From Candidatus Lokiarchaeum ossiferum (GTDB lineage Archaea > Asgardarchaeota > Lokiarchaeia > Sigyniarchaeales > Promethearchaeaceae), in contig CP104013.1 in NCBI GenBank assembly GCA_025839675.1, positions 4,110,001 to 4,142,000 of the forward strand: a stretch of 32,000 bases of DNA, read 5' to 3'. Of the stretch, positions 1,131 through 14,499 are shown one piece after another. The position numbers were made by a program, and so were the translations under genes. Each line of letters opens with the position of its first letter. Positions within the stretch are counted from its first letter, which is position 1. Below the pieces are notes generated by a model that worked only from the letters and a program-made list of their open reading frames with translations, had not been told where the DNA came from and searched no databases.

Positions 1131-1502
1131 TTACTCCTTTTTTTGAGATGATGCAAGAATTTCTTTGATATTTATTAATAGATCCTTCTGAGAGAATGGT
1201 TTTAATCGGTATTTAAGCCCTATTTTAAAAATTTCCAGTTCAACTAATATTTTTTCCGAATATCTTGAGATAAATAATACTAAAACGTCTGGTTTTTCTT
1301 TCACAATTATTTCAATTAGTTCAGTCCCATTCATTAAAGGCATAATCATGTCATTAATAAATAAATCCATAGAATTTTAATGAGCACGAAATATAGATAA
1401 AGCTTGGAGAGGATCACCCGCGATAAGTACATTATAACCGCTGTTTTTTAAATGATTTTGAAATAATTTGCGAGGTTGCGGTTCGTTTTCCACGATTAAC
1501 AA
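1131..1502 (-). pseudogene. CheY-like response-regulator receiver domain interrupted by an in-frame TAA (nt 1377-1379)
   Basis: Hand translation of the minus strand in one frame gives ...(TTG)LIVENEPQPRKLFQNHLKNSGYNVLIAGDPLQALSIFRAH-STOP-NSMDLFINDMIMPLMNGTELIEIIVKEKPDVLVLFISRYSE...LKPFSQKDL. The receiver landmarks are all present: an N-terminal acidic beta1 end, the phospho-acceptor Asp in 'LFINDMIMP', Ser in 'LFIS' and Lys in 'KPF'. There is no ATG upstream of the stop; TTG at 1500-1502 is the best start. The frame is open up to nt 1574. Confidence 0.6.
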
Positions 1503-1609
1503 GGTTTCATTTCTAAAAAGATCCTTTTTTGCAATATTTTCACGTTTTTCTTGTTTTGAAACTGATAAATTCCATCAGTGATCTCTGGAAGAGGGTTGAT
1601 ATTTTTTAA

Positions 1610-2755
1610 TCAATAGACTCCATCTGTGTGTTTGAGAAAAGGGAAGATTTCATTAAATATTTCTTCTCCCGCTTTATACCTCTCATTTGAACTGGGAGTA
1701 TTCTTTAATGATTCTTCAAACATCGATTCAAACTCCTCAACAAACTTTTTGAGTCCCTTTTGCAAAACCAGAGAAACCTGATTTGTTGCTACCGTTGCTG
1801 TGATATATTCTCCTGAATCCAATATCAATGAGACATCGCTATTGATGATTTTTGTTATATAACCTTTTGATTTTAAGGAGGATTGATGCAATGTAGTTAA
1901 AGTCGAATTTAGAAATGTGAAATAGTTTTCATCCAGTTCATTTTTCGTATTTTTGGTTTCGAAGGTTAACGATAGCAAATTTAACTTTGTTTCTTTGTGA
2001 ATAACTATCAACATGTAATGATCGAAGGGTAATCGGAAAATGTATTTTAGATTTAAAGTGCTAACTATGAGAAATAAACTGAATCCGATGACAGTCAAAA
2101 CTTCTCCAATTTTACGCGCTAAACTTAAAGCAAGGGATAGCTCATCAAACGAATAAGGTATAATTATTACTAGTCCCATTACATATCCCAAAGTTGTGAT
2201 AACCATCGAAATATAAAAAAATTCAGATAGTTTTTCAGAAGTATATTTCCACATGTTGTAACACACCGGAATTCCACAAAATCCAAAAACAAATATCTGT
2301 AGTCCCTTTAAACTTAATCGACATATGAAGTACATCATATTGTTAACAGGTGATTTAAAAATTATTTCATTGTAAGTCAAAACTAGATAGAAATAACCCA
2401 TCACGGTTACTGTAATAAAAAATACTATCAGTGAAATGTCCCGTTGGGAACGTTTTATCCTTCTTAATCCATCTAAAAATATATAAAAGAAAAAAATCTG
2501 AAGGCAATAAAGAAATATATAAAAACCTCTGAGAGCTAATTGTCCTTGCTTTGAAGGTATGATTTTTAAAAAATATAAGCAAACAAAAATTAAATTTAAC
2601 ATCCCTAATAAGTAGGCTAAGAAGAAATCCTTAACGGGACGATTTTGATGCTTCCGTTTGTAATTTATAAGGAAAATTCCAAATAGAAGAAAAATTCCGA
2701 AATTTGATAAAAAATCATATGATAATACAGTAACCATTTTTAAAATGAATATCAC
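1610..2755 (-). CDS. 7-TM membrane protein with a C-terminal cytoplasmic alpha/beta (roadblock/longin-like) domain
   Basis: 381-aa ORF with GTG at 2755 and an alternative ATG at 2737. Seven hydrophobic helices span aa 1-235. They are followed by about 140 soluble residues with a beta-beta-alpha-beta-beta-alpha pattern (MLIVIHKETKLNLLSLTF / LDENYFTFLNSTLTTLHQSSL / ITKIINSDVSLILDS / YITATVATNQ / LVLQKGLKKFVEEFESMF). The domain assignment is inference. Confidence 0.7.
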   Translation of the reverse strand: MIFILKMVTVLSYDFLSNFGIFLLFGIFLINYKRKHQNRPVKDFFLAYLLGMLNLIFVCLYFLKIIPSKQGQLALRGFYIFLYCLQIFFFYIFLDGLRRIKRSQRDISLIVFFITVTVMGYFYLVLTYNEIIFKSPVNNMMYFICRLSLKGLQIFVFGFCGIPVCYNMWKYTSEKLSEFFYISMVITTLGYVMGLVIIIPYSFDELSLALSLARKIGEVLTVIGFSLFLIVSTLNLKYIFRLPFDHYMLIVIHKETKLNLLSLTFETKNTKNELDENYFTFLNSTLTTLHQSSLKSKGYITKIINSDVSLILDSGEYITATVATNQVSLVLQKGLKKFVEEFESMFEESLKNTPSSNERYKAGEEIFNEIFPFLKHTDGVY

Positions 2756-2975
2756 TTTAAAATTAAATTTAATTTATTTCAACTGATTTTAACTGATTAT
2801 AAATTTGGGTCGATTGTTAAATCACATATGTGTATTATTGAATATGGGTAGTTATCCAAATATGAAGTTTGGTCGATTAATTTGTGCAAAACATTTAAAA
2901 TGTATTTTATCCATAGTCAATGACAGATATATATAACAATAATTTTTCCCCTCCTTTAAAATCAAGCGATTTGAT

Positions 2976-3626
2976 ATGGACATGAAATCTTCAGTGTTTT
3001 GGTTGACAATTTTATCTATTGTGGTCTTAACTTTCATCATTCTAAGTATTCTATCCGTTCACAAAATTCGCAGATATCGACAAACTGTTTTCTACCATGA
3101 AATACAATCACTTGAGTCTTTTTTAGATATTTTAGATAATAGTGACAATCATATAGATGGAACGCTAAGAACAAAAATTTCAAAAGAAATTCTTAAAATT
3201 GTTAGAAAAAAACCCCAATTGTTGACTATGGTGCCATCAAATGATAAAAGTAAAGTTTCTGAAAATCTTGAAACACAATTATTACCAAATCAATTCCTCA
3301 AACCTTATCCTTTTAATATTCTGTTGGCTCTCTCGAACTTGGGAAAAACTTATTTCACAACCCTTTTAAAAACTTTGAAAATGAGCAAAGGAAATTTAAA
3401 CCATCATTTAAAAAAACTTCAAGAACAAGATTTAGTAAAAGAAGAAAATGATTTGATGGATTTTCGTCGGAAAACATGGGAAATTACACCACAAGGTAAA
3501 CAAGAATTCAACACCTTGGTTCATAATTTGAAGAATCGTCTTCAGAAATTCGAACCTCCTAGTTCTCTGCTGGTGAATGAACAGGGGCGAGTGAAATCTT
3601 ATTCGATAATTCAAACGGCCAATTAG
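2976..3626 (+). CDS. membrane-anchored winged-helix (ArsR/MarR-like) DNA-binding protein
   Basis: One N-terminal TM helix (VFWLTILSIVVLTFIILSILSV). The C-terminal part has a wHTH pattern: FNILLALSNLGKTYFTTLLKTLKMSKGNLNHHLKKLQEQDLVKEE...RRKTWEITPQGKQEF. Confidence 0.7.
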   Translation: MDMKSSVFWLTILSIVVLTFIILSILSVHKIRRYRQTVFYHEIQSLESFLDILDNSDNHIDGTLRTKISKEILKIVRKKPQLLTMVPSNDKSKVSENLETQLLPNQFLKPYPFNILLALSNLGKTYFTTLLKTLKMSKGNLNHHLKKLQEQDLVKEENDLMDFRRKTWEITPQGKQEFNTLVHNLKNRLQKFEPPSSLLVNEQGRVKSYSIIQTAN

Positions 3627-3693
3627 AATCGACCTCATTCTCTAGTAATCTACTCCCCAAAAAAAAGTTCTCCAGAAAAAATTATTCTCGATT

Positions 3694-3719
3694 AAAACGC
3701 AAAAAAGCGGTTTGTTTTT
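3694..3719 (+). terminator. imperfect hairpin followed by a T-run downstream of 2976..3626
   Basis: AAAACGC-aaaaaa-GCGgTTT, then GTTTTT, about 70 nt after the stop codon. Confidence 0.3.
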
Positions 3720-3808
3720 AGAACTACCTTTGAGGTTTATATACAAACACTTTTTTAACACAAATGGACAAGAAATTTGTCTAAAAATAATTGTAAAAAA
3801 GTGATAAA

Positions 3809-4405
3809 ATGAAAAATTCCAAAATAATTGCCATGAGTGTATTATTCTTATGTACACTTTCTTTCCTCAATTTAGGAAATGCTTATGTGACTCCTCCTGA
3901 TTCACCATTGGTTGTCGGAAATAAATATTGGACTGAATATAATATGATTTATAGTCAAAAAAGTGGATGGACTTATAAAAAAAGATTCACTATCACAGTT
4001 CAACTTTGGACGACGTGTAAAGAATCTCCATATGGGGGGAAATATTTAGATGTTTACGCAGTTGGTTTATATACATATGCTGGTTTGGTTGCACAAAGAG
4101 GTGTTTCAGTGACAACAAGTGGAGATTATATTATCTGCCAAAATGTTGGTAGTGGAAGTGCTCCAACTGTTGTTCAGATTAAAGCTAGCCCCATAATTTA
4201 TTGCAATGGGGCTACTCTTAATCCTGTTATAATCCTTCAATTAGATATTATGGGTGGCCATAAATTAGATGTGGACATTAATTCATTACCTGGTGGTTGG
4301 AAAATATCAAGTTCCGAAGTAGAAACTGAAGGTCTTCCATATAATGTAGATACATTAGACACTTTAACTTCGGTATGGGAGAGAAGTTTTCAACAACAAG
4401 CCTAG
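3809..4405 (+). CDS. secreted or surface protein of unknown function (signal peptide, probably all-beta)
   Basis: The N-terminus MKNSKIIAMSVLFLCTLSFLNLGNAYV looks like a signal peptide. The mature part is G/T/V/S/Y-rich, unlike the K/I/F/E-rich neighbours. No family recognised. Confidence 0.65.
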   Translation: MKNSKIIAMSVLFLCTLSFLNLGNAYVTPPDSPLVVGNKYWTEYNMIYSQKSGWTYKKRFTITVQLWTTCKESPYGGKYLDVYAVGLYTYAGLVAQRGVSVTTSGDYIICQNVGSGSAPTVVQIKASPIIYCNGATLNPVIILQLDIMGGHKLDVDINSLPGGWKISSSEVETEGLPYNVDTLDTLTSVWERSFQQQA

Positions 4406-4461
4406 TTATGAGTTTTTAAAGCCAGAATATAATTAATTAATCAGAAAATCTTGAGTCATAG

Positions 4462-4477
4462 TTTTTTTTTATTTTTT
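4462..4477 (+). terminator. oligo-T terminator (T9-A-T6) after 3809..4405
   Basis: T9 at 4462-4470 and T6 at 4472-4477, about 57 nt after the stop. Oligo-T is the canonical archaeal termination signal. Confidence 0.4.
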
Positions 4478-4844
4478 ATCAAAAAAATATTAATTCGCCT
4501 CTTCAAGAATCTCAACTCTCATATTTTCTTCCAGTCGAGCATGTATGTAAATTGCTTGGATAAATATTCTGGGTCGTGGCATGGAAATGGAAATAGTTTA
4601 ATGAAAAATAAATTTTCGGCTCTAATTTGGATCCAACAAAAGTTTAAGGTCATTTTTTGTTATGAACTCAATTTAGAGAGATAGTTAATCAACTAAGATT
4701 ATGTTATTTTTCAGAGTGATGATTTGATAGCTAATTAAAGAAGTAAGTTTCCAAGGATCGTATATAAAAAAAAATGAAAAAAAATGTGGTTGTGTGTGAT
4801 TAAAGATCAGAAAAAAAGGTTGGTTGGTTGAAAGAATTGTGAAT

Positions 4845-6239
4845 TTAATGCCACATCGCCATGGCATCTTGCATAAAGCGAATGGCTTTTTCTTCTAAGG
4901 CCATAATTTCCCGAAGTAAAATGGCCCCTTCTTCTCGACAGAAGAATGATGAGGGTTGCCCTAATGTAAATGGGAAAAGGGCGGTAAATTCTTCCCATTT
5001 ATCCGCAATCTCTTGATATTTTTTTGCGGCTTTTTGGATCATGAAACTAAATGATTTGTTCGCATATTTGTCGTGAATCATATATAAGAAATCTGCACAA
5101 TGCTGCTTATTCTCTGCATAATAAGACCCTAAAAAGGCATTGGCTTGAGGATTCAAGCTGGAAAGAATTTCTTCATTACTTTTAAGTAAATTTGCCCATT
5201 CTTCAAACATCTGAGGACCAGATACTCGGTCATCATGTTCTGGCTTCCCTGTTCCATTTTTAGCAAATTCAATGGCTCGTTCTAAAGCTTCGCGATAATC
5301 ATTGTCTGTAATGGGGGCGGTTTCATCTCGTACAAAGACTGCATGCATATAATTAGTCGTTTTTAGTGAATAAAATTGGCATGGAAATCCACTATAGCCC
5401 ATATCGCTGTGGTAGGCGTGAGCCATATAATAATCTTGGAAACAACCATTGACAATTCCATATTCCGGAAGGAGTAAGCCAAATAAGACCGCAGGTTTTT
5501 GGAATTGCTTGATTTCCTGTTTCACTACATTGAACATGTTCTTTGCCCGTTCGATATCTTCCAGAGTAATCGTACCATAATAGGTTGGAAAGGCTTTTTC
5601 TTCATAATGTCCATGTAATTCATAGCCTAAACGGCTGGAAGCCTTTAATATTTGATCCCAATCACAATATTTAAAGTGGGAACTTCCATCAATGGCATCC
5701 TTAGTAAAATTATTGAGGAAACTCATCCCAGAGAATCCATTAACAAATGAAACGGAATATTTTTTTTCCAAAGAATTGAAAATACCTGTGATGGATGCTA
5801 CAAAAGAATTCATTGCACCGGGATATTGTGCTGGCTTTGGCACGGATATCTTTTCTTGCAATATTTTTGGGGCTTGAAATAGTCCTTCATAGGGATGCAA
5901 TTGTGTGTTTGATTGAAAATAATCGGAATTCACTGCCCGTTCAAAGAGGTTTACATTCGTATCTAAGAAATTTTTCCCTTTTGGGGTGATTTTATAGTAG
6001 CCACGAGAGAGACGTTCGATAAGATGTTCTTTTTCTAAAATGACGAGGTGATTAACCAAGGAAGTTTTACTGATTTGGGAAAAATCCTTCAAATTTTTAA
6101 AAGTTTGAATATTTTCGGAATTCAAGAGCATAAGCAAGTTTAATCGCTTAGGATTGGCAAGAGATTTGAGAACGTCGCTGATTCGACTTACTTCTTCATG
6201 AATGACTTGCATTGATACAATTTGATTTTCGATAACCAT
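4845..6239 (-). CDS. ArsR-type wHTH regulator fused to a roughly 350-aa C-terminal domain of unknown function
   Basis: The N-terminus VLKSLANPKRLNLLMLLNSENIQTFKNLKDFSQISKTSLVNHLVILEKEHLIERLSRGYYKITPKGKNF shows the ArsR/HTH_20 pattern. The remaining 350 aa are soluble and mixed alpha/beta. Three T-runs on the minus strand (4811-4817, 4777-4784, 4766-4774) follow the stop. Confidence 0.8.
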   Translation of the reverse strand: MVIENQIVSMQVIHEEVSRISDVLKSLANPKRLNLLMLLNSENIQTFKNLKDFSQISKTSLVNHLVILEKEHLIERLSRGYYKITPKGKNFLDTNVNLFERAVNSDYFQSNTQLHPYEGLFQAPKILQEKISVPKPAQYPGAMNSFVASITGIFNSLEKKYSVSFVNGFSGMSFLNNFTKDAIDGSSHFKYCDWDQILKASSRLGYELHGHYEEKAFPTYYGTITLEDIERAKNMFNVVKQEIKQFQKPAVLFGLLLPEYGIVNGCFQDYYMAHAYHSDMGYSGFPCQFYSLKTTNYMHAVFVRDETAPITDNDYREALERAIEFAKNGTGKPEHDDRVSGPQMFEEWANLLKSNEEILSSLNPQANAFLGSYYAENKQHCADFLYMIHDKYANKSFSFMIQKAAKKYQEIADKWEEFTALFPFTLGQPSSFFCREEGAILLREIMALEEKAIRFMQDAMAMWH

Positions 6240-6851
6240 GATTTTTTCACATTTTTTGTTTTTGGGGGAGTATCTCTTTCCTCAGGTTGTTTTTTAGTGA
6301 ACTGAGCCTAATATCCACTGTTTTATCATCTAGAGCGGATGATTTGAAGTATTACATTTCTTGGAGTTCATCCGTGTTTCTTGTTCCTAACGTCCACTGA
6401 ATTTCGTAAGATTAATGTCAAAGCACCCAATATGTTGGAATTTCCGTATTTGGTTAATGTGGGCTTTGAAACATTTTTTACCTGATGGAAAAAAATATTG
6501 CGACAATCGCAAACTATTATAATTTATTATGTGAAACCATATATTTAAAGCTATTGAGTTTTGCATTTTTTGCAAACCTAAAATAATGCGTTTTTGAGCG
6601 ACTTGATATTTTTCGATTCAGTGCAATATATCTTAAATTCTGTATTTTACGATAATATTTTGAGAAATTGTTTTAAAGCCCTGAATGTATGAAATAAATT
6701 TGTATAAATTTAAATTTGGTTTAATTTATCTACTAATTTTAATTTTCTAAGATCAAAGTTCATAAAAAATAGTTCCAATTTATTATCACCAAATTTCGTT
6801 TTTTGCAAAGAATTTATCCAAAATGATTTAAATTCTAAGTGCTGAATTCGA

Positions 6852-7484
6852 TTAAATTTGGTAATTTTGAGTAAATTTTCGATTTATTCCAATTAAAGTT
6901 GAGCCTAAAATAAGATAGAAGGCTGTCATCCCTAAAATAGATAGAATATATGGGCCCACTCCCAAAGATAATGGGTCAATAAAGAAATATGGATAGAATC
7001 CAGTTACGACACCATAAATCAGAGTCAAGACTAAATAACATATCGGGTAGATAAGCCATTTTTGAAGGTAATTCCACTTGTATCGGATGTTTCTTTCGGT
7101 TAAAAACCAATCCACAATAAAATAAACTGGAATCAAATAGTGGAAAAGAATATTAGTTATATCAAAAGCGTAATCTGGAGGCATTAATGGTGCTAAAATA
7201 ATAGCGAAAATTAGAAAGGTGGCTGTGATGTACAGCGTAATTCCACCTCGAACCAGTCCTGTAAGCTTCTGGTATTTTTCTGGTTTCCTATCCCAGAGAA
7301 TTGCTAACAACAACCACACTGCTACCAAGAAATTTGATTGAATCGTATAAAACAGAAATAAAAAGAGGGATTTGCTCGTTGCAATATCATAAATTAGGAT
7401 TATCCATCCGATTAAGCAAAATATTATACGTAGTATCCATAAGCTTTTTTTGACCATTTTCGTAATCACCGATGAATAACTCAT
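6852..7484 (-). CDS. 6-TM membrane protein, Pr6Pr/FAR-17a(AIG1)-like
   Basis: 210-aa ORF with six hydrophobic helices and the motif 'FYTIQSNFLVAVW' in TM2. This matches my recollection of the F-T-x-Q-S-N signature of Pr6Pr family proteins. The family call is from memory, not from a search. Confidence 0.6.
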   Translation of the reverse strand: MSYSSVITKMVKKSLWILRIIFCLIGWIILIYDIATSKSLFLFLFYTIQSNFLVAVWLLLAILWDRKPEKYQKLTGLVRGGITLYITATFLIFAIILAPLMPPDYAFDITNILFHYLIPVYFIVDWFLTERNIRYKWNYLQKWLIYPICYLVLTLIYGVVTGFYPYFFIDPLSLGVGPYILSILGMTAFYLILGSTLIGINRKFTQNYQI

Positions 7485-7838
7485 GTAATCTTACAATTCA
7501 AAAAATGCTTTCTCCTTTATATAAAAAAGGGTTCAAGTAATTTGGAATAACTAAACTGATGCTATAAAAGCTATCTTTTGAAATACTCCATGTTGAGTTT
7601 TTTTTTTTTATTAACAATAAATCTAAGAAAATTGGAAACCCATGATCAATAATGAGGTTTTATTGCTCATAGTGTTGTGGTCACTTGAAGAGCTAAAAAA
7701 AATGACCAAATTTTCAGAAAACTTGGAAAATTCTTTTATAAAATGTCTCTATTTTTTCTCTTAATTCAATCTTTTTTCAATGAAAGTGTAATTTGAAAAA
7801 TTTTGAATCCTAGGAAATTTAAAGCACGTTGAATTAAA

Positions 7839-8660
7839 ATGATCTTGATGAAAAACCAAACTCCCCAGAATATTGAAGAGAAGTCTACGATTTGGGGGGA
7901 TATTAAGTTCAGTTTTCATCTATATAAGCAAAATTTCAAACCGATTTTTTGGGTGTCTTTAATCCGATTTTTGGCCATATATTCGGCAAGTCATGCCTTG
8001 CGTTTTGTATTTCACCAACAAATCTACAACTCAATGCCCAATATGCCTGTGATGTGGATTGAGTGGCTACTTCGAGTTCCTTCCGATCTCATTAGTTTTG
8101 GCTTTTGGGGGGCAATAGTTGGAATGGCCTATGATATTATGTCTTCTGGAGATGGTTTCGCAGATCTTAAGAATTCATTTTATTATATCAAGAAATATTG
8201 GTTTCCGTTTGTTATCTTAAGTCTTTTGGTCAATTTATTTATCTATGTCATTCGTCTGGTAATTCCTTGGTATGTAAGCATGGGAGAAGCGATTATTTTG
8301 CGGACCTTTTCCTTTTTTTGGAGTTTGCTGTTTGTGGAAACTTCGGCAGGATTGGTAAGTCGCCACAATATTCGAGATGCTCTGAAGGATAACTTTAAAC
8401 TACTGTTCACATGTTTTAAACGAATTTTTAAAACTTTTGGTGTATTTTATCTTTTATTCATGGTAGGGCGAATTCTTCTCGGCTATTATTTATGGTACTA
8501 TGGAAATCCATCTTCAATCGTGCATTTAATTGTAATAATTGTATTATATACTTGGAATGTCATTCATGGCTTTTTAGGTTCTCCAATGTACGCATTTTTA
8601 ACCATTGGAATCTATAATGAAGAATTGCGGTATAAAAATCAAGAAATTAAGAATGTATGA
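7839..8660 (+). CDS. 6-TM membrane protein, paralog 1 of the 'YDIMSSGDGF' family (unknown function)
   Basis: 273 aa, with ATG at 7839 or 7848. It shares the block FGFWGAIVGMAYDIMSSGDGFADLKNSFYYIKKYWF (nt 8097-8204) with ORFs 9274.. and 10191... It also shares the N-terminal 'IKFSFHLYKQNFKPIF' amphipathic lead-in and the C-terminal 'FLTIGIYNEE' ending. Confidence 0.75.
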   Translation: MILMKNQTPQNIEEKSTIWGDIKFSFHLYKQNFKPIFWVSLIRFLAIYSASHALRFVFHQQIYNSMPNMPVMWIEWLLRVPSDLISFGFWGAIVGMAYDIMSSGDGFADLKNSFYYIKKYWFPFVILSLLVNLFIYVIRLVIPWYVSMGEAIILRTFSFFWSLLFVETSAGLVSRHNIRDALKDNFKLLFTCFKRIFKTFGVFYLLFMVGRILLGYYLWYYGNPSSIVHLIVIIVLYTWNVIHGFLGSPMYAFLTIGIYNEELRYKNQEIKNV

Positions 8661-8721
8661 TCTAATTTATTGAACTCAATATTTTTCAAGAATTGAAGAA
8701 TGCGGAGTAGATTCAATCGAA

Positions 8722-9105
8722 TTATTGAATACCGGGCCATTCAAAATGAAAAGTGAAATGCAATGCACTGGTACGATAATACTTAAGCAAAATTCGTTTT
8801 TTATTGATTTGAGTTCTAGCCACCACAACTACCCCATACTTCTGTAGCTCGGAAATATGTCGTTTAACCGTACCCGGATTCATTCCGGTAGCAGTGCTTA
8901 ATTCCATGATAGTTTTTTCTTGGGTTAACAAAATTTCAAGTAAAATTTGCTTTTTTTCATGGGTAAAACTGGGAATGACATTTGGGTCTGTGATAATCAT
9001 GTCTTCTGCAGGAATAAAGGTCCCTTCATTTGCATCTGAACTGCGAATATCCTCTGGAGAATTAAAATTTGGTGAATTGCGTCGTTTTGTATTTCCATCT
9101 TCCAT
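8722..9105 (-). CDS. ArsR-type wHTH transcriptional regulator, paralog A
   Basis: 127 aa. IITDPNVIPSFTHEKKQILLEILLTQEKTIMELSTATGMNPGTVKRHISELQKYGVVVVARTQINKKRILLKYYRTSALHFTFHFEWP shows the HTH_20/ArsR pattern. It is clearly paralogous to 10990..11424, preceded by a disordered N-terminal tail. Confidence 0.75.
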   Translation of the reverse strand: MEDGNTKRRNSPNFNSPEDIRSSDANEGTFIPAEDMIITDPNVIPSFTHEKKQILLEILLTQEKTIMELSTATGMNPGTVKRHISELQKYGVVVVARTQINKKRILLKYYRTSALHFTFHFEWPGIQ

Positions 9106-9273
9106 TGTAATTACCCAAATCGATCCAGTCGATATTTAATATAGAAAGAAGCTGGTTAATATTTATAAATTCTGATTGAGAAATCATAATTTGTTCAAAA
9201 AAAGATGAATAAAGCGAGTTTTTTATAAAACCCTTACGAAATTTTTTATTCATTGTGTAAAATAGACTATAGT

Positions 9274-10074
9274 ATGGAAGCTGGGGAACAAAATGGGGCG
9301 ATATCTGTTGATGTAAAATCAGATTATAAGCTCAGCTTCTCTTTATTCAGGGAGAATTTTCGTCCCTTCTTCATTGTTCTATTAATTGGGTTTATTGTTT
9401 TCAAAGGAATAGATCATTTATTGACTCGTTTTGTGCTTCCGCTAATCTTAAGTAATTGGTTCTTTGTTGATCCCGCTACAATCATATTTTTCTTCTTTTT
9501 ACCTGGAGATAGTATCTTTTTTGGATTTTTTGGGGCTGCCATGGGTTTAGGGTACGATATAATGTCTTCAGGTGATGGTTTCACCGAAGTTCGGAATTCC
9601 CTGTTCTATATCCGAAAATACTGGCTGAAATTTTTCTTCTTTTGCTTCTTTTTTAACATTTTTACCTATTGGTTACTATATTTGAGTTTTTTTACTATTC
9701 CTTTCCATACCAGTATTATTTTCCATGGCCTAAGCTTGATTTGGGTGATTCTCTTTTCCAACATTTTCCCTGCCCTGGTTCATCGGGATCAATTTCTCCC
9801 CGCTTTCAAGGATAATTTTCAAATTCTTTCTCAACAATTTGGCCGAGTGATTATCACATATCTGCCATATTATTTGATTTTTGTTTACTTTCGCTCCGGA
9901 ATAAACATATATCGTAATTTCTTTGTACTCGATACCACTGATCTTTATGCATTTCTCAGTATTACAACTAGCATCTTAGAAATCCTATATGTTTTTGTGG
10001 GATTTCCTATTTTCGCTTTTCTTTCTTTAAGTATGTACAATGAAATAATTACCAACCAACAAATGGAGAAATAA
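9274..10074 (+). CDS. 6-TM membrane protein, paralog 2 of the 'YDIMSSGDGF' family
   Basis: The ORF track starts at TTG 9253. ATG 9274 is preferred because it places 'YKLSF' at the same distance from the start as in paralog 3. An A/T box (TTTTTATT, about 9244-9251) also lies about 23 nt upstream. Conserved block FGFFGAAMGLGYDIMSSGDGFTEVRNSLFYIRKYWL at nt 9520-9627. Confidence 0.75.
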   Translation: MEAGEQNGAISVDVKSDYKLSFSLFRENFRPFFIVLLIGFIVFKGIDHLLTRFVLPLILSNWFFVDPATIIFFFFLPGDSIFFGFFGAAMGLGYDIMSSGDGFTEVRNSLFYIRKYWLKFFFFCFFFNIFTYWLLYLSFFTIPFHTSIIFHGLSLIWVILFSNIFPALVHRDQFLPAFKDNFQILSQQFGRVIITYLPYYLIFVYFRSGINIYRNFFVLDTTDLYAFLSITTSILEILYVFVGFPIFAFLSLSMYNEIITNQQMEK

Positions 10075-10190
10075 TGCTCTCGATTTTATTTCAATAGAAA
10101 TAGAACTTTATGGGAAAGAATTCTTTTGAAGTTAGGTTTTTTGATCAAATTTCGAAATTTTTTAACAAGTGACAACCTAACTAATACTTA

Positions 10191-10985
10191 ATGGTCGATA
10201 TCGATTCCGAAATCTCTCCCTCCTATGATATTGAGAAAGAATATAAGTTGAGTTTTGACTTATTCAAAGACAACTTTAAACCTTTTTTTATAGTCTTGCT
10301 AATAGGATTTGTAATTTATATGGCTTTGGATCATTATTTGACCAAAATTATTCTACCCAATATCAATTGGATGGACCTCAAAATTTCCCGTCAATTGATG
10401 CTATTTATCATATATTTACCGGGGGACAGCATATTCTTCGGATTTTTCGGAGCAGCTATGGGATTGGGCTATGATATAATGTCTTCGGGTGATGGATTTA
10501 CGGAAGTTCGGAATTCACTTTATTATATACGGAAGTATTGGTTCAAATTCTTTGTCTTTTGTTTCATTTTTAATATTTTTTCATATTGGCTATTATATCT
10601 TGCAGTAGATCACATTCCTCTCAATATATATGTATCATTCAAAATTCTTAATTTTTTCTGGATAATTCTATTTTCAAATGTATTTCCCGCCTTGGTTCAC
10701 AGAAAAAAACTATTAATTGCCGTGAAAGAGAATTTTGAGATACTTTCCCATAGTTTTGGACGCGTAATCTTGACTTATTTACCATACTACCTTATTTTTA
10801 CACAAATCCGTACTGGAGTTTTAATTTATCAGCATTATGTTATCTTTGATATGGAAGATCTTACGACGAACATAATAAAATTTTGCCTGACTGTATTTTA
10901 TGTCTTTATTGGATTTCCCATTTTCGCTTTTCTATCTTTAAGTATGTATAATGAAGAAATTCGGAGTCAAGAATTAGATAAATAA
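10191..10985 (+). CDS. 6-TM membrane protein, paralog 3 of the 'YDIMSSGDGF' family
   Basis: 264 aa, very similar to paralog 2 along its whole length (e.g. FKPFFIVLLIGF, LPGDSIFFGFFGAAMGLGYDIMSSGDGFTEVRNSLYYIRKYWF, FPALVHR, GFPIFAFLSLSMYNE). Conserved block at nt 10437-10544. Confidence 0.8.
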   Translation: MVDIDSEISPSYDIEKEYKLSFDLFKDNFKPFFIVLLIGFVIYMALDHYLTKIILPNINWMDLKISRQLMLFIIYLPGDSIFFGFFGAAMGLGYDIMSSGDGFTEVRNSLYYIRKYWFKFFVFCFIFNIFSYWLLYLAVDHIPLNIYVSFKILNFFWIILFSNVFPALVHRKKLLIAVKENFEILSHSFGRVILTYLPYYLIFTQIRTGVLIYQHYVIFDMEDLTTNIIKFCLTVFYVFIGFPIFAFLSLSMYNEEIRSQELDK

Positions 10986-10989
10986 TGTG

Positions 10990-11424
10990 TTAGGGCCATT
11001 CAAAATGAAAAACAAAGTGAAATGCTGTTGTTCGATAATATTTTAGTAAAATTTTTTTTTGATTAAACTCTTCTCGGGCAACAACAACTAGAGTTCCCTC
11101 GACAAGGTCTGTAAGATGACGCTTTACCGTTCCGGGATTCCAGCCGGTGGCCGTACTAAGTTCCATAATTGTTTTTTCTGAATGTAGCAGCAAGTCTAAT
11201 ATTACTTTTTTCTTCTCATGGTTGATTAATGGAATAATATTAGGATCGGTGATGAGAAGTGTGTCTTCTGGCTCGTATTTACTCTTTTGAGGAAGAGAAT
11301 CGCTCTTCGAATCGTTTATTGATATTTTTCTTCTTCCTCCTATTTTCTTTTTTATTTCCCTATATTGGTAAGTAAAAGATATAAAAAAACCTTTATTGTC
11401 AAATTTAGTTCCGTTTTTATCCAT
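10990..11424 (-). CDS. ArsR-type wHTH transcriptional regulator, paralog B
   Basis: LITDPNIIPLINHEKKKVILDLLLHSEKTIMELSTATGWNPGTVKRHLTDLVEGTLVVVAREEFNQKKILLKYYRTTAFHFVFHFEWP. The ORF is open to a TTG at 11478. ATG at 11424 is preferred because 'MDKNGTK' parallels 'MEDGNTK' of paralog A. The stop lies 4 nt from the stop of 10191..10985 (convergent). Confidence 0.7.
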   Translation of the reverse strand: MDKNGTKFDNKGFFISFTYQYREIKKKIGGRRKISINDSKSDSLPQKSKYEPEDTLLITDPNIIPLINHEKKKVILDLLLHSEKTIMELSTATGWNPGTVKRHLTDLVEGTLVVVAREEFNQKKILLKYYRTTAFHFVFHFEWP

Positions 11425-11598
11425 AAAAAAATTTTTGCTAATCCGTTCATATTTTGTGAAATTTAGCTTGTTTTTCAATAATTTTATCGAATAGATTTTA
11501 TGTAATGAATTTTCGTTTTTGGATGAGAATTGGTTAAGTACATTTTTTAATTTAGCCAGCTAAGTGACAACTAATTTACAAAAAATATCGCGATTTTT

Positions 11599-12927
11599 AT
11601 GGAAAATACAGATAGTGATTCTAATTTACAATTAGATAATAAAAAAAGAATTTTGGCTTGGTCTTTATACGATTGGGCTAATTCCGCATTTGCCACCACC
11701 ATAATGGCTGGATTTTTTCCAGTCTTTTTAGGGGCATATTGGGCACCGGAATCCATTGTTGATACAGCACAAAAAACGTTTCTTTTAGGGGCATTCAATT
11801 CTGGTGCTTCTTTAATTGTGATGATTCTTGCTCCAATATTAGGAGCAATCGCAGATCATATGGCTGGAAAGAAGAAATTTTTGGCCGCTTTTTGTCTTAT
11901 GGGCGTAATAATGTCTGCTTCTTTAGGTTTCCTTGCTTCTGGTCAATATTGGTTTGCGTTGGTACTTTATGCATTAGGAACAATAGGTTTTTCAGGGGCT
12001 AATATATTTTATGATTCGTTATTACCCGCTGTTGCTTCAGAGAAAAAAGTTGATTATGTCTCCAGTTTAGGGTTCAGTTTAGGATACATAGGTGGCGGAT
12101 TATTGTTTACTCTTAACGTAGCTATGTACCTTTTGCATGATTCCATTGGCTTAACAGAAGATCAAGCCATAAAATTATCATTTATCTCCGTAGGTGTCTG
12201 GTGGTTAGTATTTTCAATTCCACTCTTTAGAAAAGTCCCAGAACCATATGTGAAAGAAAAAATTTCTGCCTCTCAAGCAATCAAAGGTGGATTTACTCAA
12301 CTTAAAACAACATTTCAAGATATTTCTCGGTTGAAATATGTTGCCATGTTTCTCCTTGCGTTTTGGCTCTATATTGATGGTGTGGATACAATTATCCGAA
12401 TGGCTTTAGATTTTGGTGATAGCTTAGATACAGTAGATCTTGGACCCACAGAATTAATTGTTATCTTACTTATGGTTCAATTCATCGCTTTTCCGGCGAC
12501 TTTATTGTACAATACCTTTGCCCAAAAGATTGGAATTAAAAAGGGTTTGCTGGTCGCCATCGGCGGTTATGGTCTGATTACTATTCTGGGATATTTTATC
12601 AGTGAAAATTGGCATTTTTATGTGCTAGGTGGGATGATTGGGCTATTTCAAGGTGGTATTCAAGCACTTAGTAGAAGTATGTATTCAAGGTTAATTCCTA
12701 AGAAGAAGGCTGCGGAATTTTATGGATTTTTCAATATGTGGGGTAAATTTGCTGCGGTTATTGGTCCTTTCATGATGGGTGGGATTACTAAACTTACTGG
12801 AAATCCCCGGTTTGGGTTACTTTCCTTACTCGCATTGTTTGTCTTAGGTGGTTTAATTCTATTTTTCGTCGATTTGGAAAAAGGCGAAGAACTTGCCCAA
12901 AAATTTGATGAGGAAGTAGAAATATAA
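11599..12927 (+). CDS. MFS transporter, UMF1/Atg22-like family
   Basis: 442 aa with about 12 TM. The N-terminal signature 'LAWSLYDWANSAFATTIMAGFFPVF' is the W-x-x-YD-x-ANS-x-F motif typical of Atg22/UMF1 MFS proteins. Confidence 0.85.
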   Translation: MENTDSDSNLQLDNKKRILAWSLYDWANSAFATTIMAGFFPVFLGAYWAPESIVDTAQKTFLLGAFNSGASLIVMILAPILGAIADHMAGKKKFLAAFCLMGVIMSASLGFLASGQYWFALVLYALGTIGFSGANIFYDSLLPAVASEKKVDYVSSLGFSLGYIGGGLLFTLNVAMYLLHDSIGLTEDQAIKLSFISVGVWWLVFSIPLFRKVPEPYVKEKISASQAIKGGFTQLKTTFQDISRLKYVAMFLLAFWLYIDGVDTIIRMALDFGDSLDTVDLGPTELIVILLMVQFIAFPATLLYNTFAQKIGIKKGLLVAIGGYGLITILGYFISENWHFYVLGGMIGLFQGGIQALSRSMYSRLIPKKKAAEFYGFFNMWGKFAAVIGPFMMGGITKLTGNPRFGLLSLLALFVLGGLILFFVDLEKGEELAQKFDEEVEI

Positions 12928-12978
12928 GCTGAAAATATATCACCAAAAAATGAACTTAACAGGTGAAGCACCATTGGA

Positions 12979-13674
12979 ATGCAAAGAATTAAAATAGCAT
13001 ATCCATTTTTTTTACTAATGATTTTCATAACCGAACCCGACTCTCCTTCAGAGACCATTTTCAGCGGAGATAATATCATTTATACCTTTATTATTATTAT
13101 TACCTTTGGGCTAGTTTGGTATACCTTCAAAAAATATCGAGAGCAAATTTCTCGTAAAACACAATGGATTTTGAGTATCATTTTCTTGTTTACTGGAATT
13201 GTTTCATTCATTTTTACCATTTCATTGGATAGTATTCTTTTTTCTCTCGGGGCTATATTGATGTGTGCACTTGGTATGTATATGGCACCTTTAAAAATTT
13301 ACAAAAAACTTCTCGATGTTGATGAAGAAGAAGAAGTTGTAATCACTCCAAAAAAGAAGAAGATCATAGCCATTAATGAAGAATACGAAGAAACACTCTA
13401 TCAACAAATGGATCGTGAAGGTCATGCCTTATACAAGACAAAAAAGTATCAATATGCGATTGATTGCTTTGTAAAAATGTTACAGCTGGATCCAGAAAGT
13501 GTGGAAGCTTGGTATATGCTCGGGAAGATCAATCTTGATCGTAATCGTATAAAGGAAGCCAGAAAGTGTTTTATAGAAGCTTATAAACTCAACAAAGAAG
13601 AAGAAAAAGTGGTAACTGCTCTTCGTGAAGTTAATGCTCTCGTTAAGCCTCCTCAAGAAAAACCAAAAGAATAA
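12979..13674 (+). CDS. membrane protein with a C-terminal TPR domain
   Basis: Three to four N-terminal TM helices, an acidic linker (DVDEEEEVV), then TPR-like repeats (EGHALYKTKKYQYAIDCFVKMLQLDPESVEAWYMLGKINLDRNRIKEARKCFIEAYKLN). Confidence 0.7.
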   Translation: MQRIKIAYPFFLLMIFITEPDSPSETIFSGDNIIYTFIIIITFGLVWYTFKKYREQISRKTQWILSIIFLFTGIVSFIFTISLDSILFSLGAILMCALGMYMAPLKIYKKLLDVDEEEEVVITPKKKKIIAINEEYEETLYQQMDREGHALYKTKKYQYAIDCFVKMLQLDPESVEAWYMLGKINLDRNRIKEARKCFIEAYKLNKEEEKVVTALREVNALVKPPQEKPKE

Positions 13675-13675
13675 G

Positions 13676-13684
13676 TTTTTTTTT
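13676..13684 (+). terminator. T9 tract between 12979..13674 and 13705..14499
   Basis: T9 sits immediately after the stop codon (13672-13674) and only about 20 nt before the next ATG. It may be a leaky terminator or simply part of the next promoter. Confidence 0.3.
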
Positions 13685-13704
13685 CATCTTCCCTTTATAA
13701 ACAT

Positions 13705-14499
13705 ATGACGGATGAAGCTGTTCTTAAAAAATCGAAGAATAGAGGTCCGTTGCAAGAAAAATTTATTGTTCTTTCTAAATTTCTCCGACGCAGTCGGATG
13801 TTAAAAGTGGTTATTCTTGTAGTTCTTTTAAATTTAATCCTAGCGGCAATTTATGCTAATATCGAAGGCATCGATTATCATCTTGCCTTATATTGGGCAA
13901 CAGATACTCTTACTAATACTGGCTCCGGTTTAGTTCCCCCCACACTGAAAGTTTCGTGGATCGGAACCACGATTTTCATGTGGTTGGGGTTGGGAATTAC
14001 TTTAGTCTTTGTCGAATTTGTCTATGTTAAAATGGTGAAAAATATGCGAGGTAATAAAGTGATAAAGTTCAAAGATCATACTATTCTTATTGGATGGAAT
14101 CCCAAAATCCGTCATTTTCTGAAAAATCTCCAAGGCACTTTGGGAGTAGATCATAATTATGTATTGGTGGCTGATATTGCCGATCGTCCTTTTGATCTTC
14201 CTCAAGTGGTAGAATTTCTTCGAGGAAATCCTGATGAAGAGCGGATTTTATTACGAGCTGGTATGAAAGATGCTCAACAAGCGATTGTGGCAACGGAGGA
14301 TGATGCTGATGCAGTTTTAATTGCGATGACGATCCAAAGCATCAATATCAATGTCAGGATCTGTGTGAATCTCTTAAGTGAAGAAAACATCAAACACTTA
14401 AAACGCATTGGGATCGAACAAATTGTGTGTGATGAAAATTTGACTGGCAACGCGCTTGTCGATGCCTTCTATAAAAATCAAGAAGATTATTTCCTATAG
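13705..14499 (+). CDS. 2-TM K+-channel-like protein with an RCK/TrkA-N domain (MthK-like) and an atypical selectivity filter
   Basis: TM1 VVILVVLLNLILAAIYANI. Pore helix plus filter ALYWATDTLTNTGSGLVPP. TM2 WIGTTIFMWLGLGITLVFVEFVYV. The Rossmann-type RCK N-lobe HTILIGWNPKIRHFLKNLQG...VLVADI...AVLIAMTIQSININVRICVNLLSEENIKHLKRIGIEQIV aligns by eye with MthK. Confidence 0.8.
   Translation: MTDEAVLKKSKNRGPLQEKFIVLSKFLRRSRMLKVVILVVLLNLILAAIYANIEGIDYHLALYWATDTLTNTGSGLVPPTLKVSWIGTTIFMWLGLGITLVFVEFVYVKMVKNMRGNKVIKFKDHTILIGWNPKIRHFLKNLQGTLGVDHNYVLVADIADRPFDLPQVVEFLRGNPDEERILLRAGMKDAQQAIVATEDDADAVLIAMTIQSININVRICVNLLSEENIKHLKRIGIEQIVCDENLTGNALVDAFYKNQEDYFL

Follow-up and report, generated by a model that had tools for sequence, protein, structure and literature searches.

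A paired membrane protein and PH1932-type winged-helix regulator in Candidatus Lokiarchaeum ossiferum and other Asgard archaea, a candidate membrane-to-DNA signalling cassette

In the systems BlaR1/BlaI and MecR1/MecI, a membrane sensor-protease, the functional loop of which faces the cytoplasm, has a small winged helix-turn-helix (wHTH) repressor as its partner. In SdpI/SdpR of Bacillus subtilis, a membrane protein of immunity and signal transduction sequesters an autorepressor of the ArsR family; members of the SdpI family typically have six transmembrane (TM) segments, and tandem versions with 12 are also known (PMC2910880). Here we present the analysis of a five-gene module of comparable composition in a stretch of 32,000 nucleotides from Candidatus Lokiarchaeum ossiferum B-35 (GenBank assembly GCA_025839675.1, contig CP104013.1, positions 4,110,001 to 4,142,000 of the forward strand), hereafter called the window. 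The module (NEF87_003492 to NEF87_003496) comprises three membrane proteins of one family (M) and two regulators of another (R) in the order M1 (+), R-A (-), M2 (+), M3 (+) and R-B (-). Asgard archaea are the nearest archaeal relatives of eukaryotes known, and to our knowledge almost nothing has been established about their environmental sensing and gene regulation. The M-R cassette resembles the known pairs of membrane protein and wHTH repressor, but its membrane family is, as far as sequence comparison reaches, unrelated to theirs and was seen only in Asgard archaea.

As in SdpI/SdpR, the gene of a polytopic membrane protein stands beside that of a small ArsR-type wHTH protein; in both systems the regulatory surface is proposed to be cytoplasmic, and tandem 12-TM forms occur. 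In contrast to SdpI, M1 to M3 yielded nothing beyond noise in Pfam (at E ≤ 1, the SdpI model included), NCBIfam or the PADLOC models of known anti-phage defence systems. The SdpR model NF033789 (repress_SdpR) reached only R-B, with 12.3 bits against a cut-off of 100, the hosts are Asgard archaea and not Firmicutes, and no toxin gene was seen nearby. With BlaR1/BlaI the cassette shares a membrane protein with a cytoplasmic loop, a wHTH repressor and, in some variants, a fused extracellular sensor (cf. the beta-helix fusions described below). However, M1 to M3 have no HExxH motif, no match to Peptidase_M56 and no penicillin-binding domain, and R is of the ArsR/PH1932 type and not of the BlaI/Penicillinase_R type.

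M and R genes were called by hidden Markov models (HMMs) in every locus fetched, two of which (L012 and L013, contig edge) were uninformative. M has an R gene as its immediate neighbour in 16 of the 17 informative loci, which come from Loki-, Hel-, Heimdall- and Sigynarchaeota; these 16 are the window, L001, L003, L004, L005, L006/L011, L007 (Heimdallarchaeota), L008 (Helarchaeota), L009, L010, L014, L016, L017 (Sigynarchaeota), L019, L021 (Promethearchaeum syntrophicum MK-D1, CP042905.2) and the contig of P0009. The arrangement varies from R followed by M to M followed by R, and in the Lokiarchaeum lineage to convergent and divergent pairs. Where M precedes R, the genes sometimes overlap by 11-50 bp; several pairs of the whole set overlap or lie 3-17 bp apart. 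Adjacency is kept in the most divergent member, which has a degenerate motif (L014), as well as in a tandem fusion and in a beta-helix fusion of M, and a search seeded with a remote R, P0166 (48% identity), likewise ended at an adjacent M. The preliminary description of this DNA had proposed a dedicated pairing of the membrane proteins with wHTH genes; linkage of M to this particular R subfamily is indeed conserved, with varying gene order, across at least four Asgard lineages. In three lineages R-M stands at the end of an apparent operon that opens with an ATP-binding cassette (ABC) ATPase and a 12TM_1 or ABC-2 permease (Table 1). In that of MK-D1, an open reading frame (ORF) of 62 amino acids (aa) with a single TM segment lies between permease and R. 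The neighbours, which are ABC transporters in MK-D1, L019 and Heimdallarchaeota and a major facilitator superfamily (MFS) transporter in L. ossiferum, suggest that the output of the system includes transporters. The M-R cassette as such appears to be specific to Asgard archaea.

An exhaustive profile search found the M family in 140 clusters (at the 50% identity level) at E ≤ 1e-3 and in 120 at E ≤ 1e-10, whereas a word-indexed search gave just 10 relatives. All members with a source name belong to Asgard archaea, namely L. ossiferum, P. syntrophicum MK-D1 (DSAG12_03062), metagenome-assembled genomes of Lokiarchaeia/Promethearchaeota, Sigynarchaeota, Helarchaeota and Heimdallarchaeota; a scan of viral contigs returned no relative of the M family. 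Members are only 20-25% identical overall, yet the block GLAYDIMSSGDxFAEFK..YFRKYW is kept, which makes this motif a signature of the family and not a peculiarity of the L. ossiferum paralogs. Near-invariance of the motif in the three paralogs, to which the preliminary description had drawn attention, holds, but the motif is common to about 140 clusters. The membrane family had not been recognised at that stage, and it found no confident match here in Pfam, NCBIfam, PADLOC, PDB sequences or PDB folds: the M-family profile gave nothing among PDB sequences even at E ≤ 10, and Foldseek returned only noise for the M3 model among PDB folds (G-protein-coupled receptors; hCTL1 at a TM-score of 0.48).

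The likeness of its layout to DUF975/GDPD-membrane-domain-like proteins, pointed out in the preliminary description, agrees with a sub-threshold similarity to DUF4013 and GPDPase_memb, seen in the family consensus and in a few distant members. The polytopic helical layout is shared with these families, but the matches to DUF4013 (PF13197), read row by row, stay under the Pfam threshold of 26.9 bits: the M-family consensus covers positions 2-167 of 168 with 21.1 bits, and the MK-D1 member P0027 reaches 20.5 bits. Regarding GPDPase_memb (PF10110; cut-off 29.6 bits), weak matches, for which only E-values are at hand, were obtained in 6 of 73 members (best E 9.5e-7), and the UniRef name of the MK-D1 member is that of a GPDPase membrane domain; M1 to M3 themselves match neither family at E ≤ 1. 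By sequence, M may thus be at most a remote, uncaptured relative of DUF4013/GPDPase_memb. A literature search found no report of the YDIMSSGD signature or of wHTH linkage in these two families, and no functional information was found in the literature on DUF975, DUF4013, GPDPase_memb, the NEF87 locus tags or PH1932.

The AlphaFold2 model of M3 (predicted local distance difference test, pLDDT, 83.5; predicted template modelling score 0.81) has an amphipathic N-terminal helix (residues 14-27), six TM segments and two short helices (164-187) between TM4 and TM5, and its motif takes up the end of TM2 together with the TM2-TM3 loop. This is the six-TM plan with the motif at the TM2/TM3 junction that had been read from the sequence beforehand. 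Across the family, the mean number of lysine and arginine residues (K+R) per segment is 4.6 / 0.3 / 2.9 / 0.2 / 3.9 / 0.2 / 2.7; the predicted inside segments hold 4.6, 2.9, 3.9 and 2.7, and the outside loops, which are 6-9 residues long, 0.3, 0.2 and 0.2. This alternation places both termini of M, the motif loop and the TM4-TM5 helices in the cytoplasm. The residues conserved in the family (N28, G91, Y94-D101, Y112, P243 and Y253) lie at the cytoplasmic face, and strong surface conservation is limited to the cytoplasmic N-terminal amphipathic helix, the YDIMSSGD loop and the end of TM6.

Two types of fusion were found among the members. The Sigynarchaeota protein P0143 (MDO8111234.1; L017 455-2341) is composed of a signal peptide, a NosD/right-handed beta-helix, one TM segment, a basic linker and an M domain, and P0141 is a fusion of the same type. 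This architecture puts the N-terminus of the M domain inside, independently of the K+R counts. The motif of the beta-helix fusion is degenerate (HQAMGTGEVV), and in L017 the R gene follows with an overlap of 50 bp; the extracellular beta-helix makes the fusion look receptor-like or sensor-like in architecture. In the tandem M-M fusions P0020 (L016 3884-5665) and P0038, which are about 600 aa long and have 12 TM segments, both halves retain the motif (YDILTRGDEF, YDILSSGNEF), and an overlapping R gene then follows. Such tandem fusions suggest that M is dimeric.

Both R-A and R-B pass the HTH_5 model with 29.3 and 26.3 bits (cut-off 22). The closest structure is PH1932 of Pyrococcus horikoshii (1ULY/2CWE), which hmmsearch matched to R-A with a sequence E of 9e-14 (residues 34-119 on PH1932 4-88 in 1uly) and Foldseek with an E of 1.6e-9 and a root-mean-square deviation of 1.6 Å over 88 residues at 34% identity. 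Other Foldseek matches of R (E 2e-4 to 1e-3) were SmtB, CadC, CzrA, SqrR, BigR, HlyU and NolR; in PADLOC, R matches only the generic wHTH part of the Csa3/CasR models. In the AlphaFold2 model of R-A (pLDDT 81.8), some 30 disordered residues precede a first strand, which leads into the wHTH core; three more strands follow the core (strands 33-38, 93-100, 106-112 and 114-119). PH1932 and R have in common the N-terminal strand (ITDPEVI), the wHTH core and an extra C-terminal strand (KYY...A..F). PH1932, however, is 192 aa long, and its C-terminal dimerisation domain (residues ~90-192, about 100 residues) is absent from R, the chain of which ends 5-8 residues past the last strand (family members 108-128 aa); its recognition helix reads PQTIYHH, as opposed to PGTVKRH in R. 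No report of a membrane partner of PH1932 was found in a literature search. The hydrophobic C-terminal extension of R had been described as unusual; in the model and in the alignment with PH1932 it is a beta-strand that joins the wing sheet and is common to PH1932, and a C-terminal membrane anchor, considered as a candidate, was rejected on these grounds.

R-A and R-B have no cysteines, no metal site and no alpha5 helix (the last element of the model is the beta-strand that follows the wing), and the metalloregulator model NF033788 gave 19.6 bits on R against a cut-off of 55. Lacking a C-terminal domain, an alpha5 helix, a metal site and cysteines, R has no visible sensing module: it belongs to the ArsR/SmtB superfamily and represents the PH1932 type cut down to the DNA-binding module. 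Hallmarks of the subfamily are ITDP..H.KK, NPGT[VI]KRH and KYYR..WP, of which the recognition helix NPGT[VI]KRH does not vary among the loci compared, which come from Loki-, Hel-, Heimdall- and Sigynarchaeota. An enlarged R of 216 aa with an extra N-terminal region (L020 1323-1973) adjoins genes of a Ras/Roc-type small GTPase and of a radical-SAM protein.

An unbiased search for palindromes in the upstream regions gave mostly A/T-rich noise, from which TTGCA-N5-TGCAA alone stood out. Its relaxed form occurs 14 times in the 158 kb of fetched loci (1.45 expected), and the element marks these loci in five lineages. Strict copies number two each in MK-D1 (L021; 0.03 expected), Helarchaeota (L008; 0.02) and Heimdallarchaeota (L007; 0.04), a count that 0 of 200 shuffles reached in each of the three. 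The two sites of a pair are 52-53 bp apart in MK-D1, Heimdallarchaeota and Sigynarchaeota (L017) and 63 bp apart in the window. In MK-D1, Heimdallarchaeota and Sigynarchaeota they enclose a TTTAAATAT box that stands before the operon encoding M and R; paired sites around the TATA box are the usual layout of archaeal repressors. R is the sole regulator seen in the palindrome-bearing loci of MK-D1, Helarchaeota and Heimdallarchaeota, and its invariant recognition helix fits an invariant operator. TTGCA-N5-TGCAA is therefore likely the operator of R, as predicted from these loci. In Helarchaeota (L008 5353-6156), a second strict site, TTGCAAAAAATGCAA, accompanied by a TTTAAATATT box, is found a short way downstream of R. 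Behind it come the genes of two small membrane proteins, paralogs of 92 and 83 aa, which may also belong to the regulon.

In the window, the pair of palindromes, a predicted operator pair of the R family, flanks a minus-strand box (TTTAAATATA) before the gene of a 464-aa soluble wHTH protein and not before M or R (Table 1). Its paired design recurs beside the M-R operons of MK-D1, Heimdall-, Hel- and Sigynarchaeota. Degenerate pairs are found upstream of the orthologs of this gene in L003, L004 and L005, where these orthologs (75-84% identity) also adjoin the module; the 464-aa wHTH gene is a probable member of the regulon. The pair in the window lies about 260 nt upstream of the ATG of this gene, a distance that calls for a long leader or for a small gene missing from the annotation. 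TM segments are absent from the 464-aa protein, and its HTH_34 match is sub-threshold (E 4e-4).

All five ORFs of the module were found with the layout and coordinates given in the preliminary description, and the motifs quoted there, i.e., the YDIMSSGDGF block, the amphipathic lead-in, TIMELSTATG.NPGTVKRH and ILLKYYRT.A.HF.FHFEWP, are all present. Regarding identity, M1 shares 32-33% with M2 and M3, as expected from its reported divergence, as opposed to 59-60% between M2 and M3; R-A and R-B are mutual paralogs at 55-56%. In the 35-codon motif block, M2 and M3 have the same residue at 34 of 35 positions and use different codons at 19 of these 34, dS (synonymous divergence) among the paralogs is saturated, and the ratio of nonsynonymous to synonymous divergence (dN/dS) between the window and its L001 orthologs is 0.10-0.14 for all five genes. 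The earlier conclusion that purifying selection on the protein, and not gene conversion, keeps the motif block is thereby confirmed.

In trees of the Lokiarchaeum lineage, the M proteins fall into the clades M1 and M2/3, and the R proteins into the clades R-A and R-B. The M1 clade unites the window, L001 and L003, and the split between M2 and M3 is common to the window and L001. The trees therefore indicate a single old duplication of the cassette into M1/R-A and M2-3/R-B, followed by a duplication of M only into M2 and M3. What had been described as a repeatedly co-duplicated pair was thus co-duplicated once, whereas the later duplication concerned only M, and L004 and L005 carry R-A, one M and R-B, i.e., one M with two R. 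A fourth, distant M paralog (P0023, WP_371804990.1; about 24% identity to M3) is found in the L. ossiferum genome outside the window.

The reading that we prefer, as a serious possibility that still falls short of being probable, is that R represses its own expression and that M, embedded in the membrane, is the input device of R, in analogy to SdpI/SdpR but without homology to it. The genes, the fold class of R, the topology of M, the conserved adjacency, purifying selection and the enrichment of the palindrome are observations; for the scheme itself we infer a contact between M and R, binding of R to the palindrome, the way in which control runs and the kind of signal. R would sit on the paired TTGCA-N5-TGCAA sites, which would lie immediately before the TATA box and at the start of transcription, and repress the promoter of the R-M operon (with the ABC exporter in some lineages) or, in Lokiarchaeum, that of the 464-aa wHTH gene. 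M, probably a dimer of six-TM subunits with both ends in the cytoplasm, would perceive a signal at the level of the membrane (extracellular in the beta-helix fusions) and would capture or process R there, in the manner of SdpI/SdpR or BlaR1/BlaI, by which repression would be relieved. In L. ossiferum, duplication of the cassette once and of M again would have produced three sensors and two repressors. More doubtful, though still conceivable, is the broader proposal that M-R represents an unrecognised class of one-step membrane-to-DNA signalling confined to Asgard archaea, in which a dimeric M captures or processes R via YDIMSSGD and which was diversified by duplication of the sensor, by tandem fusion and by addition of the beta-helix. 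DNA mimicry, with an acidic M loop binding the basic recognition helix of R, was considered and is unsupported: the R helix is invariant where the M motif is degenerate.

Several observations weigh against M acting on R. The M gene of L015 has no R within 6 kb, and the R variant of L020 has no M nearby. The M motif and the R helix do not covary, NPGT[VI]KRH being kept in L014 and in L017 of Sigynarchaeota despite the degenerate M motif. The near-absolute invariance of YDIMSSGD suits a catalytic or ligand site better than a protein-protein interface. The Lokiarchaeum lineage has no canonical palindrome in its M and R promoters; the element sits before the neighbouring wHTH gene, the 464-aa product of which could be the true palindrome binder in this lineage. 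Finally, adjacency alone fits equally well with R merely repressing an effector gene. A regulator beside a membrane effector is the commonest arrangement of ArsR-type genes (e.g., arsR-arsB), and in this alternative, the main rival of our reading, R would be a plain ArsR-type (auto)repressor, sensing its signal alone or via an unseen partner, while M would be the regulated effector without feedback to R. M could then be a channel, a small transporter, a protein of immunity or membrane stress, or an accessory subunit that serves the ABC or MFS transporters encoded next to it. The position of M-R downstream of ABC ATPase and permease in MK-D1, L019 and L007 and beside an MFS gene in the window and L001, the 12-TM tandem fusions, which are typical of transporters, and the missing covariation all agree with such a role. 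We nevertheless regard it as rather unlikely: R shows neither a dimerisation module nor any recognisable site for a ligand or a metal, conservation in M follows the cytoplasmic face and not a membrane-spanning path, the outside loops are very short, the beta-helix fusion resembles a receptor, and most M-R pairs have no neighbouring transporter.

Decidedly improbable, in our estimate, is that M is a membrane-embedded enzyme, with YDIMSSGD and the basic R/K114-115 as a cytoplasm-facing active site of a Ser/Asp or Ser/Lys hydrolase or transferase, the substrate of which would be a lipid head group or R itself (by proteolysis as in BlaR1/BlaI), while R controls its expression. No match to a catalytic family was found, there is no conserved histidine and no HExxH, and a motif that is degenerate in L014 and L017, both of which keep an adjacent R, would be unusual for a catalytic site. 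The extreme invariance of the motif in an otherwise so divergent family and its location at the membrane-cytoplasm interface do speak for an enzyme, as does the remote, sub-threshold similarity of some members to a membrane domain fused to glycerophosphodiester phosphodiesterases, but GPDPase_memb and DUF4013 have no known activity. An ordinary lineage-specific expansion of paralogs with wHTH neighbours by chance could invoke the abundance of wHTH genes nearby (2976-3626 and 4845-6239). The neighbour of M, however, is always of the same R subfamily, in four lineages and four arrangements, the fusion variants of M included, and in the window the R HMM picks only R-A and R-B. The linkage across loci effectively refutes pure coincidence, and we give this explanation hardly any credence.

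HMMs of both families detected no further copies of M or R elsewhere in the window. M1 is matched by the M-family HMM with an E of 2e-80, and the cluster of its orthologs, P0011/P0149, carries the name L. ossiferum; R-A matches P0153 with 100% identity, and M3 matches P0001 (L. ossiferum) with 98%. The mechanical ORF of M2 begins with TTG at 9253, whereas the ortholog P0006 (266 aa) starts with MEAGEQNG; the ATG at 9274 is likely the true start by this comparison. The start codon of R-B, annotated by NCBI as the ATG at 11424, is uncertain. The position of the ATG in the orthologs from L001, L004 and L005 reads ATA in L. ossiferum (11323-11325, minus strand), and the frame stays open for about 50 codons further despite this ATA. 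In the region 11380-11440, the ATG at 11424 falls within a TATA-like box that is conserved in the promoter of the orthologs, and a 3-bp deletion in L. ossiferum breaks the inverted repeat (CTAAT-N8-ATTAG) that L001 and L004 have. R-B appears to have undergone remodelling at its 5' end in L. ossiferum.

The divergent region between R-A and M2 has a mean column identity of 81% over five orthologous loci, while synonymous sites in the coding regions are saturated. Two local repeats in this region draw their support from phylogenetic footprinting (Table 1). The repeat ATCGA-N5-TCGAT is identical in L001, and a two-sided change in L003 (ATCAA...TTGAT) preserves it; it is a candidate local operator, although with 4 matches against 1.4 expected it is not significantly enriched in the window. 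For the second, no significant enrichment of the pattern TTCAA-N6-TTGAA was found in the window. The exact 10-mer AAGTGACAAC has only two occurrences in the 32 kb, one before M3 and one before the ATG22-like MFS gene, which hints at co-regulation of these two genes. No Rfam match was found within 4000-14000, and a scan for sigma-70 promoters and terminators gave 23 sites against 20.5 expected, its bacterial models being uninformative for an archaeon. Between the 464-aa gene and M1, the window holds a gene of the Pr6Pr family; in L003, the 464-aa gene and an M1-type gene are separated by just one called ORF of 47 aa. The Pr6Pr gene looks like an insertion into the neighbourhood of the module. 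Genes of wHTH proteins are unusually numerous in the left part of the window.

Table 1. Coordinates of the genes and candidate cis-elements in the window, and of the operons combining ABC transporter, R and M genes in other loci.
Locus	Feature	Coordinates	Strand	Remarks
Window	M1	7839..8660	+	273 aa, six TM; NEF87_003492; divergent paralog; YDIMSSGDGF codons at 8130-8159
Window	R-A	8722..9105	-	127 aa; minimal ArsR-type (PH1932-like) winged-helix regulator; NEF87_003493
Window	M2	9274..10074	+	266 aa, six TM; motif codons 9553-9582
Window	M3	10191..10985	+	264 aa, six TM; motif codons 10470-10499
Window	R-B	10990..11424	-	Second PH1932-like wHTH; NEF87_003496; annotated 144 aa; frame open up to 11478
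Window	464-aa soluble protein	4845..6239	-	N-terminal ArsR-like wHTH and ~360-aa domain of unknown function
Window	Palindrome pair TTGCGACAATCGCAA and TTGCATTTTTTGCAA	6498-6512 and 6561-6575	-	Flank the TTTAAATATA box before the 464-aa wHTH gene
Window	ATG22-like MFS transporter	11599..12927	+	ATG22 E 5e-70; syntenic with the module in L001
Window	Pr6Pr-family membrane protein	6852..7484	-	NCBIfam NF038065 E 1.6e-28; between 464-aa gene and M1
Window	wHTH protein, 216 aa	2976..3626	+	HTH_34 E 9e-10, HTH_5 E 3e-8; DNA-binding domain in C-terminal half
Window	Inverted repeat ATCGA-N5-TCGAT	9119..9133	.	Between R-A TATA-like box (~9134-9146) and R-A start codon
Window	TTCA-N8-TGAA element	9194..9209	.	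R-A/M2 intergenic; invariant in 5/5 orthologous regions
Window	B recognition element (BRE)/TATA-like CGAAATTTTTTAT	9237..9249		Upstream of M2
Window	AAGTGACAAC	10167..10176	+	Just 3' of M3 TATA-like box; partly conserved in L001
Window	AAGTGACAAC, second copy	11562..11571	+	3' of TATA-like box of ATG22-like MFS gene
L021 (MK-D1)	ABC-R-M operon	1793-5822		
L019	ABC-R-M operon	1375-5282		
L007 (Heimdallarchaeota)	ABC-R-M operon	1878-5277		

The M family is a protein family absent from the curated databases; it is clearly marked by its signature motif, its topology is firmly supported, and its partner regulator has a structurally solved relative and a predicted operator that is conserved in Loki-, Hel-, Heimdall- and Sigynarchaeota. 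Both Asgard archaea in culture possess the system, L. ossiferum as well as P. syntrophicum MK-D1, where it consists of DSAG12_03062 and its neighbour; it is therefore directly testable. If M does control R, the cassette would be an archaeal counterpart to the SdpI/SdpR and BlaR1/BlaI paradigms and would provide a functional context for membrane proteins that resemble DUF4013/GPDPase_memb remotely at best.

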